DNA of 64,000 nucleotides from a phage. Under the pieces are notes generated by a model. That model saw only the letters and a program-made list of their open reading frames with translations, made no database searches and was not told the DNA's origin. Below, one piece after another: positions 45,528 to 51,041 of this stretch (positions within the stretch are counted from its first letter, which is position 1; every line of letters begins with the position of its first letter). The stretch is taken from NCBI GenBank assembly GCA_025830695.1, contig GCA_025830695.1_4111.1. The stretch is one strand, 5' to 3'. The position numbers and the translations under genes are program-made.

Positions 45528-45863
<336 letters not shown>

Positions 45864-45864
45864 A

Positions 45865-46047
45865 ATGACACACGAAGAATGGATGTCCAAACAGCATAAA
45901 GAACATGACTGCTTTGGGAATGGCATTCGTCAGGTACATTATGATATATTAAGAGATGAAAATCTTTTCAGGTCATATGTTTTGGATACCAGAAAACCCT
46001 GGTTTATATGCGAACTGGCATTTAGAAAGTCAAATAATCAAAACTAA
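45865..46047 (+). CDS. MTHEEW-family small protein (copy C)
   Basis: internal ATG of track ORF 45847..46047. Confidence 0.5.
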   Translation: MTHEEWMSKQHKEHDCFGNGIRQVHYDILRDENLFRSYVLDTRKPWFICELAFRKSNNQN

Positions 46048-46063
46048 ACAAGGAATACAAAAA

Positions 46064-46282
46064 ATGGAAACAACTTTATTTGAAGTTATTCAATCATTAA
46101 AACCTGAAGATGAGGTTCAAGTACTACTACATGGTTATCGTGTAAAAGGTACTGTGGTTTTAGTCAATGATACAACATTGGTTATTACAGAAACAAACCC
46201 ATATGATAGTAATCAACTTGCCAATATCCATATCGATATCACTGGAATTATTGGTGTCGGTGTATCTAAAACACTTGCATAA
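46064..46282 (+). CDS. hypothetical protein
   Basis: internal ATG of track ORF 45956..46282 with AAGGAAT RBS. Confidence 0.45.
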   Translation: METTLFEVIQSLKPEDEVQVLLHGYRVKGTVVLVNDTTLVITETNPYDSNQLANIHIDITGIIGVGVSKTLA

Positions 46283-46335
46283 ATCATTAATTCATTATAT
46301 AATGATTATCACTGGTTCTAGATGAGGATAATATT

Positions 46336-46608
46336 ATGCATTTTGAAAAATTCAACGTAAATCGTAACACACGCATTGAAGTTCTTTATGAAACTCAAGA
46401 CACCATTAGTATTCGTACAAGTAGTGGGGATGTATATCATGACTGTACGATTGGCTGGGAACAGGGAAGGACGCGTAGTGCAGTATTTGATAATTATCGC
46501 TTTTATCAAGGAGACACTACGATTTGGCCTGAATACGTAGAAGATATTGCGTTTGAAGATGAACATAAAGATGAATTTATCAAATTTAATCCTCAAACTG
46601 AATCATAA
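46336..46608 (+). CDS. hypothetical protein Confidence 0.45.
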   Translation: MHFEKFNVNRNTRIEVLYETQDTISIRTSSGDVYHDCTIGWEQGRTRSAVFDNYRFYQGDTTIWPEYVEDIAFEDEHKDEFIKFNPQTES

Positions 46609-46612
46609 ATAA

Positions 46613-46742
<130 letters not shown>

Positions 46743-46745
46743 AAT

Positions 46746-46846
<101 letters not shown>

Positions 46847-46848
46847 CA

Positions 46849-47009
<161 letters not shown>

Positions 47010-47013
<4 letters not shown>

Positions 47014-47170
47014 CACATGAAGAATGGATGAATGACATTAATTTTAGATATTCGGGTATCGGTAAATGGCTAAAGTATCATTGGGAATTCATTTCAGAGC
47101 CACATCTGTATGATAAACTTATCAACGATCCAGCATATGAAATGTACTTAATTGAACTACTGGTACGATT

Positions 47171-47174
<4 letters not shown>
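47010..47174 (+). CDS. MTHEEW-family small protein (copy E)
   Basis: near-identical to copy D over the first third; ATGA-coupled. Confidence 0.45.
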
Positions 47175-47336
<162 letters not shown>

Positions 47337-47344
47337 AAAAAAAG

Positions 47345-47758
<414 letters not shown>

Positions 47759-47815
47759 CTAAATAATTCAGTACTGAGGATATTAATATGTTTAAAGATG
47801 AACGTCCAGATTTGT

Positions 47816-47853
<38 letters not shown>

Positions 47854-47857
47854 GAAT

Positions 47858-48201
47858 TCCACAATCAGACGTATATGGTGTAAGTTACGTCGATGCAATC
47901 CAGAACAAGATCTCTGGTACTCTAGGAAGTGGTGAATGTTAACCTAGACGGGTTTGATAATTGGACGATAGGCAATTATTACTTGACTAGCAGGTTTAAA
48001 CTAGAGGTGACTATCCTTCACCAAACTGGAAAACCGGATGGACTTTTATTTAAAAGGGTAAGGCGTGGAAATATGTTTACAGAAGTTGCTTTTAGTAGCC
48101 TGTACGCCCCACGTCAAGGTAGCCGAAAGGCAAGTTAAGACGGGTGGTTATAAAGCTGAATTAACAGCGGCGTTTAAAAGCGTCACCATCCATTTTTTTT
48201 T
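47858..48201 (+). ncRNA. candidate structured non-coding RNA
   Basis: ORF-poor, GC-richer stretch between a promoter and a hairpin + T-run; long-range complementarity (GGTGAA...TTCACC), GAAA tetraloop CCGAAAGG. Confidence 0.35.
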
Positions 48202-48217
48202 AATTAAAGTTGGTGAT

Positions 48218-49027
<810 letters not shown>

Positions 49028-49051
49028 ACGAAATTACAATAGGAAATTAAA

Positions 49052-49237
49052 ATGCAACTTTTAATTCTTTCAATATTGTATATTATTATAATGGTTCCGA
49101 TATCAATACGTTTAATTACACTTGAACGATTTTTATCGAAACATGGAAATAGATCTATGATCTTAGTACCAATCGGGCTTATATTGTTTGGTATTTTTGC
49201 ATTTATAATGGGAATTAACGCTACATTCATTTCATAG
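49052..49237 (+). CDS. small membrane protein
   Basis: 61-aa two-helix hydrophobic ORF. Confidence 0.45.
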   Translation: MQLLILSILYIIIMVPISIRLITLERFLSKHGNRSMILVPIGLILFGIFAFIMGINATFIS

Positions 49238-49246
49238 GAAACAAAT

Positions 49247-49504
<258 letters not shown>

Positions 49505-49512
49505 GAATTTAA

Positions 49513-49914
49513 ATGAAAAAGAATGACTTGATCAAAATGCTTCAAGAAATTGACGGCAATCCAGAGATTGTTATTTGGAATGGATACGTCGATGATTATA
49601 TGAACATCGAAAAAGGCTTGACTAAAATCACTCTAGTCAAAGAAACCGAACAGTTTCTTCAGGGTGCATTAGAGCACGAATGGTGTGAACGTAACAATAC
49701 ATTCGACATTCCAGAAGACCAACGAACCAAGATTGCAGAACGTGCTAAAGAACTGCATAAGAAACGTGAATACGATTTCCAGAACCCATATGTCACTGAA
49801 GACGAATTCAATCGCTGGTACGGTAAAAAGAAATTGATAAAGTATGTCCTTTCACCTAAACTACGTGGTAAGACTTCACTTGGTGTATTCAACGCCGCAG
49901 ACTTAAACTACTAA
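49513..49914 (+). CDS. hypothetical protein Confidence 0.5.
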   Translation: MKKNDLIKMLQEIDGNPEIVIWNGYVDDYMNIEKGLTKITLVKETEQFLQGALEHEWCERNNTFDIPEDQRTKIAERAKELHKKREYDFQNPYVTEDEFNRWYGKKKLIKYVLSPKLRGKTSLGVFNAADLNY

Positions 49915-49926
49915 GAGAGTATTTAA

Positions 49927-50694
<768 letters not shown>

Positions 50695-50696
50695 TA

Positions 50697-50753
<57 letters not shown>

Positions 50754-50838
50754 AGTAAGAGTAAAAATGAAAGTAAGTAAAAAAACTACCAAGCAGCTTG
50801 AAGAACTTTGTAGTGCTGCACCTATGCCGACTCTTGGC

Positions 50839-50939
<101 letters not shown>

Positions 50940-50951
50940 TATCTTACTTCT

Positions 50952-51041
<90 letters not shown>

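Follow-up and report, generated by a model that had tools for sequence, protein, structure and literature searches.

That the transfer RNA (tRNA) gene clusters of phages also encode small stable RNAs, such as RNAC and RNAD of T4, was recognised fifty years ago. Drum RNAs, likewise structured, are also associated with phage tRNA genes. Here we analyse positions 47,858 to 48,201 of a 64,000-nucleotide (nt) stretch of phage DNA (NCBI GenBank assembly GCA_025830695.1, contig GCA_025830695.1_4111.1; the whole stretch is referred to as the window), which a preliminary description had read as a promoter-to-terminator unit that plausibly makes a small RNA comparable to those of T4. Our comparisons indicate that the unit is instead made up of two small structured RNA genes, termed RNA A and RNA B, fused under one promoter.

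T4 RNAC (species 1) and RNAD (species 2) are non-coding, 119-139 nt long, and follow directly on a tRNA within the phage tRNA cluster. No role has yet been assigned to either (PMC3014915, PMC9697503). GOLLD and ROOL are large or ornate structured RNAs of phages that tend to be found near tRNA genes, their function likewise unassigned (PMC12286853). Theta ribozymes resembling that of hepatitis delta virus (HDV) sit right behind phage tRNA genes and are pseudoknotted (PMC10879173). T4-type phages in addition carry PeSLs, composite early-promoter/stem-loop cassettes that terminate upstream and start downstream transcription, and that mediate modular shuffling (PMC2839356, PMC4122927).

Two small RNA genes under one predicted promoter

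By BLAST, this region of the window belongs to the RaK2/121Q jumbo-phage group, with 97-99% identity to Escherichia phages E9.1, 121Q and PBECO4 and their relatives; for 47856-48204, the Klebsiella phages K64-1 and RaK2 have an unannotated counterpart of 81% identity. The area is rich in tRNA genes (six on the + strand, 45550-51031), and the unit lies on the tRNA strand, flanked by tRNA-Ser at 46652 and tRNA-Ser at 48621. Downstream of a promoter at 47825-47853, approximately 345 nt are devoid of a conserved open reading frame (ORF) and close with a structured element that leads into a run of T9 (48193-48201). The entire unit has a minimum free energy of -93.2 kcal/mol (z -2.23), more stable than 98 of 100 shuffled controls and equalled by the other two; a folding comparison of this kind had been proposed in the preliminary description.

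The modular make-up of the unit is evident from its relatives. The first 186 nt, RNA A, match gaps between tRNA genes elsewhere, and the remainder of the unit finds no match there (BLAST). In both K64-1 and the K64-1-like metagenome contig OGVK01001386.1 (L019), a 42-nt insert with TTGAAC-17-TATAAT is placed exactly between A and B. In metagenome contig JACCDR011713278.1 (L018), separate promoters stand before A, an additional uncharacterised RNA, a tRNA and B. Phage JNE01 has a promoter joined to B and no A, and EJP2 has A and no B. Together, these arrangements suggest that the window lineage carries a derived fusion in which B has lost its own promoter. A 42-nt deletion in the window's phage lineage would have taken out that promoter, fusing A to B, and the tandem would be read from a single early sigma-70 promoter. 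We assign a probability of roughly 80% to the reading that the unit holds tandem small-RNA genes A and B behind an early promoter, A being released from tRNA arrays and B carrying a terminator or PeSL-like cassette. The features of the unit and its borders are as follows.

47755..47784, + strand: upstream repeat of the promoter cassette in degenerate form (TTGACTAAATAATTCAGTACTG...GATATT; 9/12 match)
47825..47853, + strand: predicted sigma-70-type early promoter of the A-B unit (11/12 match, cassette recurrence, position kept in relatives)
47855..48044 (3' end approximate), + strand: RNA A, structured RNA of about 190 nt, phage tRNA-array family (covariance-model match, covariation, identity to inter-tRNA gaps)
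48044..48057, + strand: weak A/U spacer hairpin between A and B (-2 kcal/mol, z -0.93), site of the 42-nt insert with a separate B promoter in Klebsiella relatives
48058..48120, + strand: core of RNA B, a long hairpin with inner stem 48078-48104 (-18.7 kcal/mol, z -2.62)
48122..48131, + strand: GCC-GAAA-GGC tetraloop hairpin, nearly invariant
48142..48201, + strand: Y-shaped 3' element followed by A and T9, probable terminator/PeSL-like cassette (recurrence, pairing, z -4.18)
48218..48595, + strand: downstream protein gene, 125 amino acids (aa), phrog_38341, outside the RNA unit and marking its end

Fold of RNA A

RNA A is composed of three 5' hairpins (P2, P3 and P4) followed by a compact 3' domain with two pseudoknots. 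P4 is followed by the junction CGGGUUUG, P5, the core UUGA-P6-CAG..AAA, P7 and P8. The elements are listed below.

47864..47894, + strand: helix P2 (AUC-GACGUA/UACGUC-GAU) with a conserved GGYG in the loop; 78% paired, compensatory changes including AGCGUA/UACGCU in Mm5
47900..47917, + strand: helix P3, a hairpin of variable length (CCAG/CUGG); 68% paired
47921..47948, + strand: helix P4 (UCUAGG/CCUAGA), loop opening with a conserved AAGUG; 100% paired, compensatory changes at 6/6 pairs
47949..47980, + strand: junction and helix P5 (AUAAUUG/CAAUUAU) with a conserved GACGAUA loop; P5 90% paired, compensatory changes at 6/7 pairs
47981..48004, + strand: knotted core with P6 (CUAG 47987-47990/CUAG 48001-48004; 100% paired) and pseudoknot a
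48006..48043, + strand: helices P7 (GGUGA/UCACC; 100% paired) and P8 (CUGG/CCGG) with pseudoknot b

This fold is established by comparison of homologues. In an 18-sequence MAFFT alignment, 90.2% of cells are paired, compared with 28-40% when the partners are slid, and double changes occur at 25 of 44 pairs. A 19-sequence covariance-model alignment that includes both pseudoknots yields 91.0% versus 26-41%, with double changes at 31 of 46 pairs. None of 500 shuffles reached the observed pairing, number of double changes or covariation score, in a control that ignores phylogeny. Both pseudoknots were added by hand and are therefore independent of the alignment procedure, as they do not form part of the covariance model.

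Pseudoknot a pairs AC at 47981-47982, just 5' of the UUGA, with the GU that opens the variable part of the P6 loop (47994-47995); it is 97% paired and occurs as AC/GU, CA/UG, AG/CU and CC/GG. Pseudoknot b connects the P7 loop (48013-48016) with the 3' tail (48040-48043), is 98.6% paired and shows covariation in three of its four pairs; the changes include a transversion pair in the 349-kb metagenomic contig (L022/L030). The UUGA, CAG and AAA of the core are invariant, as are A73, G75 and T76 in the P4 loop region. P3 takes the form CCG/CGG in both SdyM006 and Proteus phage 1; a 120-kb viral contig (L007) has a longer version and L022/L030 a reduced one. Most lineages fold individually into the three 5' hairpins. 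RNA A is assigned to the + strand, where G-U pairs are frequent and which is also the tRNA strand. A further helix, P1, closing the 5' CC with the CGGG junction, is suggested by RNAfold in some lineages; it is not kept in the Aeromonas phages and was omitted. A column-pair scan for tertiary contacts returned, beyond pseudoknot a, mostly lineage-correlated noise.

Distribution and tRNA context of RNA A

Homologues were gathered by BLAST and pattern scans of viral, metagenome and genome collections. RNA A is 84-93% identical to unannotated inter-tRNA gaps of T4-like Bragavirus (PM2, Pm5461, vB_Mm5 and SdyM006) and T5-like Novosibvirus; such identity across phage families otherwise little alike points to recent horizontal spread and selection. 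A total of 19 homologues were found in approximately seven lineages, all carriers being phages or phage-like contigs: RaK2/121Q-type jumbo phages (lineage 1), Bragavirus and Novosibvirus (2 and 3), Aeromonas Ishigurovirus (4; phage 65, avDM6, ZPAH1 and L037), Klebsiella KP13-16 and L029 (5), the 120-kb viral contig (6) and the 349-kb metagenomic contig (7). A covariance model of RNA A, R1, retrieves the 19 genuine copies with scores of 109-216 bits and no other noteworthy match; in the window it matches 47855-48047 with 216 bits.

A covariance-model scan, also proposed in the preliminary description, gave tRNAs only when run with Rfam: no other family passes the gathering thresholds of Rfam 15 in the window, and at E up to 10 nothing relevant appears in 47600-48400, including transfer-messenger RNA (tmRNA), RNase P, 6S, Drum, ROOL, GOLLD, HDV-like, twister, pistol and hatchet. 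In 13 related loci, nothing apart from tRNAs and a single group I intron reaches the thresholds, and ARAGORN finds no tRNA or tmRNA within the A-B unit. There is no match to RNA A in 5,426 E. coli genomes, on which ground a host origin was rejected, and no credible match in 185,579 species genomes by pattern scan and hidden Markov model (HMM). Wider pattern hunts added few phage contigs, many other matches being due to chance. No paralogue of A or B was found elsewhere in the window, and a literature search by sequence words and topic found neither RNA described. On this comparative evidence, RNA A represents a family of structured RNAs in phage tRNA arrays that is well supported and has not been described before; there is less certainty about RNA B with its cassette.

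Several resemblances were considered and set aside. By eye inspection only, the motifs of tmRNA, signal recognition particle RNA, 6S, preQ1-I and a CsrB-like GGA sponge are mismatched or not conserved across lineages. An RNase P-like reading, in which 'ACAGAA-GUUGCUU' of B and 'AAGCAAU' of A could mimic helix P4, was rejected: A occurs without B in most lineages, the GUUGCU of B pairs locally with covariation of its own, and L018 alters this GUUGCU with no matching change in A.

The adjacency to tRNA genes is close on both sides. RNA A begins 0-3 nt past a tRNA CCA end in PM2, Pm5461, SdyM006, Proteus phage 1, avDM6, KP13-16 and L037, and ends 2-10 nt before the next tRNA in PM2, Pm5461, SdyM006, Proteus phage 1, Mm5 and L030. 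The flanking tRNAs vary by lineage (Gly/Asp, Leu/Ser, Pro/Thr, ?/Asn, ?/Glu), and in the window, K64-1, L018 and L019 RNA A is stand-alone and promoter-driven, with no tRNA in the same unit. Where tRNA genes flank RNA A, tRNA processing probably excises it, since it lies 0-10 nt from them.

Two annotation matters were encountered among these phages. In Aeromonas phage 65 (L004), the small annotated coding sequences (CDSs) ST65p134 and ST65p135 (2118-2443) are placed upstream of A (2390-2583), the second overlapping its 5' end; both calls may be spurious. In avDM6, a relative of phage 65, tRNA-Pro directly abuts RNA A. The GenBank record of Morganella phage vB_Mm5 (L015, PP397179.1) gives a tRNA strand opposite to that of ARAGORN, which is the strand of the neighbouring CDS; this is probably an annotation error.

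Coding status

The unit contains ORFs of 27 aa and 69 aa (GTG start, 47929-48138) as well as a GTG-started extension, 48065-48595. No frame stays open in the homologues of RNA A, each having stops in all three frames. Substitutions are spread evenly over codon positions (149/133/133), the P3 indels have lengths that are not multiples of three, and the 69-aa ORF has no PHROG match. The upstream GTG extension is not part of the downstream protein, because the phrog_38341 match covers 1-123/123 from the ATG at 48218. The preliminary description had likewise seen no convincing ORF and had given the downstream family gene its own ATG at 48218, in agreement with these results. These comparisons establish the unit as non-coding as far as sequence can tell: the stretch encodes no protein.

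RNA B and the Y-shaped 3' element

RNA B (48058-48201, approximately 145 nt) consists of a long hairpin, the GAAA hairpin and a branched 50-nt 3' element. Within the 58-nt core hairpin, GGCGUGG at 48062-48068 has two alternative partners, ACGCC at 48104-48108 or CCACGUC at 48109-48115. L018 and Kuravirus XT18 each have changes in the 5' strand that are compensated in the two alternative partners alike, giving double changes. The core shares 83% identity with part of an 800-nt non-coding Kuravirus region. In Escherichia phage vB-EcoP-XT18 (Kuravirus, L005), this region (2013-2803) comprises about 800 nt without annotated genes and harbours the B-core copy at 2501-2554 along with other hairpins; it has no Rfam match at E up to 5. 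No homology of RNA A to the Kuravirus region was detected with the HMM or the covariance model.

The GAAA hairpin is nearly invariant, and covariation is therefore uninformative. It precedes the Y-shaped element after tRNA-Ser in EJP2, and the two may constitute one larger 3' module. Short, conserved sequences of the GAAA-hairpin type (e.g. CCCCGAAAGACCCGAAAC and GGTAGCCGAAAGGCAAG) are found before the Y element after tRNA genes in K64-1 (L011, 2834-2944) and EJP2 (L043, 1493-1533).

The Y element has a 7-base-pair (bp) closing stem, GGGUGGU/ACCAUCC (48142-48148/48185-48191), a UAUAAA linker and two inner hairpins. Folded alone it reaches -19.1 kcal/mol (z -4.18), which none of 200 shuffles attains. 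The long-range complementarity noted in the preliminary description is real, corresponding to 48062-48068 with 48109-48115 and to this closing stem, and its GAAA tetraloop is found at 48125-48128. Its terminal hairpin with a T9 run is right as regards the T9 (48193-48201); the hairpin is not a simple one but the branched Y element. In the window, the terminator-like features are the 7-bp stem, one A and U9, the stem enclosing a 36-nt branched interior; a simple terminator scan made no call because the element is branched.

Across the window and the related loci there are 13 Y copies of constant length. The element ends B in all relatives, follows tRNA genes in K64-1, L019 and EJP2, and stands upstream of A in K64-1; it also occurs in an unrelated 44-kb viral contig (L044). 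K64-1 and RaK2 have three copies each, the window one. Nine distinct copies have 94.8% of cells paired, compared with 32-61% when slid, with covariation.

Read as DNA, the Y element presents an A/T-rich stretch, TTGACA or TTAACA, 17 nt and yAyyAT, then a Shine-Dalgarno (SD) sequence and ATG. The window copy has TTATAAA, TTAACA, 17 nt and CACCAT, a -10 matching 3/6 positions, followed by GGTGAT and the ATG at 48218; the copy upstream of A in K64-1 and that of L044 have TTGACA-17-TATTAT, in L044 followed by SD and ATG. An inner hairpin falls within the -35/-10 spacer, and the closing stem overlies the -10. A promoter scan found no strong promoter between the T-run and the ATG at 48218. We read 48142-48201 as a candidate PeSL-like cassette. 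The Y element is most likely a terminator or attenuator that would end or dampen A-B transcription, and probably also a weak promoter, through CACCAT in the window, for the gene at 48218. Relatives differ by indels located at such cassettes: JNE01 lacks A, the window lacks a promoter for B alone, and the promoter is duplicated at 47755/47825. This fits recombination between cassettes.

Promoters and neighbouring features

The A-B promoter consists of TTGACT (47825-47830), 17 nt and TATAAT (47848-47853) with an extended -10 TG. The consensus promoter claimed in the preliminary description is thus present as sequence, scoring 11/12. Promoter-like sites in the region are no more frequent than chance (42 observed versus 41.9 expected); the promoter is credible because the long cassette TTGACTAAATAGTTCAGTACTG.TATAAT is repeated at 47346 and, in degenerate form, at 47755, and because a related consensus promoter precedes tRNA-Ser at 48586. 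Relatives retain the -35/-10 pair at the matching place upstream of the RNA. Transcription would start near 47860. In phage JNE01, the cassette equivalent to the 47755 copy drives RNA B directly.

In the window, 47755-47853 contains the promoter cassette duplicated 70 nt apart, with a 9-codon remnant ORF (ATGTTTAAAGATGAACGTCCAGATTTGTAA) between the copies; JNE01 carries a single copy joined to RNA B, a difference that fits recombination between promoter cassettes. Upstream, three tandem 54-aa ORFs (46849-47335) all start with MTHEEWM (phrog_10970), and a fourth copy of the motif is located inside the ORF at 45847 (45847-46047); they form a small paralogous gene family interleaved with the window tRNA genes. 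On the minus strand of L018, RNA A is separated from the tRNA-Arg that precedes RNA B by an ORF-less, promoter-driven stretch of about 170 nt (GAATTTTATCAACGGTGAGTAACATTGCAC...CTCACCATTGATAAAAT). The long complementarity of its ends points to a third small RNA gene of the jumbo-phage RNA island; it has no counterpart in the window. In L019, a group I intron (Rfam RF00028, 104 bits) occupies 2460-2692, approximately 1.6 kb downstream of RNA B.

Discussion

From its position between tRNA genes, RNA A would be freed as a discrete stable species by the tRNA-maturation enzymes of the host: RNase P would cut at the 5' end of the downstream tRNA, 3'-end processing of the upstream tRNA would complete the release, and the 3' pseudoknot of A could limit exonuclease trimming. 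In the giant RaK2/121Q-type phages, RNA A would have become a free-standing promoter-driven gene.

Certain observations weigh against two tandem RNA genes with a terminal cassette. Folded by itself as a single sequence, A does not stand out (z -0.79), and the case for A is comparative, based on 19 sequences in about seven lineages, several of them close relatives. Its 5' domain aligns poorly in distant lineages, as reflected in the 78% and 68% pairing of P2 and P3. The B hairpin rests on seven sequences with four informative changes. The -10-like CACCAT of the window Y element is under the promoter-scan threshold, and the U-run of the Y element is not conserved, being interrupted in the Klebsiella relatives (AAAUUUUAAUUU). 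Furthermore, we infer the expression, transcription start, 3' ends, processing and stability of A and B.

RNA A might serve only in cis, as a spacer of the tRNA precursor that aids processing or stability of the neighbouring tRNAs and has no role once released. Spacer-derived fragments of bacterial tRNA operons are known, and A is 0-10 nt from tRNA genes in most lineages. We nevertheless consider this unlikely, given that A is promoter-driven and stand-alone in four of the loci (the window, K64-1, L018 and L019), and that the flanking tRNAs change while A keeps its invariant loops and junctions, which fits a self-contained function. Another reading is that A is a ribozyme whose self-cleavage releases either A or the tRNA upstream. 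A starts right after a tRNA 3' end, and its two pseudoknots and highly conserved unpaired nucleotides would suit such a role, for which the HDV-like theta ribozymes provide a precedent (PMC10879173). However, no Rfam ribozyme model matches A even at E up to 10, and the covarying fold consists of successive hairpins plus two local pseudoknots, as opposed to the nested P1/P1.1/P2/P3/P4 double pseudoknot of HDV-like ribozymes. The first nine or so nucleotides are unpaired and lack the starting G of an HDV-like P1, while the promoter-driven copies have nothing upstream to cleave off, making a ribozyme very unlikely.

A different role is that of a long regulatory leader, attenuator- or riboswitch-like, through which the A-B unit or B alone would control the gene at 48218 via the terminator. 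An ORF always follows B within about 25 nt, the 5' strand of B has two mutually exclusive partners that both covary, and no strong promoter separates the T-run from the ATG. The genes downstream of B are, on the other hand, unrelated among the window, K64-1 and L018; the Y element is also found after tRNA genes and the B core in the Kuravirus non-coding region, and A has no consistent downstream gene. We regard a leader as improbable. Finally, several GenBank records, for 121Q and relatives, annotate a hypothetical protein at 47929-48138, the 69-aa GTG ORF. That this small protein is made appears extremely improbable in view of the stops, the lack of codon-position bias, the indel lengths and the missing PHROG match described above; many records leave the region unannotated, and the double compensatory changes fit RNA pairing. 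The 'hypothetical protein' annotations in many jumbo-phage records would be corrected by the non-coding result.

With tandem RNA genes as the preferred reading, our leading guess is that A and B act in trans as stable RNAs, in connection with tRNA biology, translation or counter-defence. For RNA A, the likeliest role, at a modest probability, would be to bind protein or RNA in connection with tRNA or translation or with defence against host systems that target tRNA. The invariant unpaired core nucleotides, free-standing copies, changing tRNA neighbours and near-identity across families argue for a self-contained trans-acting RNA as opposed to a passive spacer. A bolder and rather doubtful proposal is that RNA A represents a new functional RNA class moving horizontally with phage tRNA arrays, its knotted, highly conserved 3' domain forming either a core with catalytic activity or a decoy or mimic of high affinity. 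If so, a decoy A could bind a host tRNA-metabolism factor or a tRNA-targeting defence nuclease, and A would be an RNA-based tool for counter-defence or translation takeover common to T4-like, T5-like and jumbo phages. RNA A offers a concrete, testable object for the role of non-tRNA passengers in phage tRNA arrays.

Comparison with known systems

Like the theta ribozymes, RNA A adjoins the 3' end of a phage tRNA and contains pseudoknots; it differs from them in fold and conserved nucleotides and matches no Rfam model. Unlike GOLLD, ROOL and Drum, it is much smaller (about 190 nt), occurs in Enterobacterales and Aeromonas phages, and has no Rfam match.

The Y element, set beside the published description of PeSLs only, resembles them in its A/T-rich stretch, TTGACA-like -35, stem-loop in the spacer or over the -10, and SD with ATG; it is similarly repeated in a variable region, with the indels of relatives (absence of A, of B or of B's promoter) at promoter cassettes. 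It differs in its occurrence in RaK2-type jumbo phages, where it flanks RNA genes as well as ORFs, and in being a conserved three-way junction in place of the simple G/C stem-loop of PeSLs. This would extend PeSL-like promoter-terminator cassettes to the RNA genes of RaK2-type jumbo phages.

The closest parallel in position is with T4 RNAC and RNAD. RNA A occupies the same kind of place in the T4-like Bragavirus, and the window unit lies on the tRNA strand amid tRNA genes. The proposed likeness to the T4 small stable RNAs hence holds for the non-coding, structured nature of the unit and for the position of A in other phages; it fails for a single 340-nt RNA, there being two genes. Nor does it extend to kinship: the T4 tRNA region gives no match to A by nhmmer or by cmsearch with model R1, so that no homology to RNAC or RNAD is detectable in sequence or structure. 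T4 RNAC has a tRNA-like T-arm (GGTTCGAATCC), unlike A, and A in turn has two pseudoknots and crosses phage families. RNA A would thus represent a second family, unrelated to RNAC and RNAD, in the phage tRNA-cluster niche. Small RNAs in phage tRNA clusters are a known kind; the family and fold of RNA A are new.

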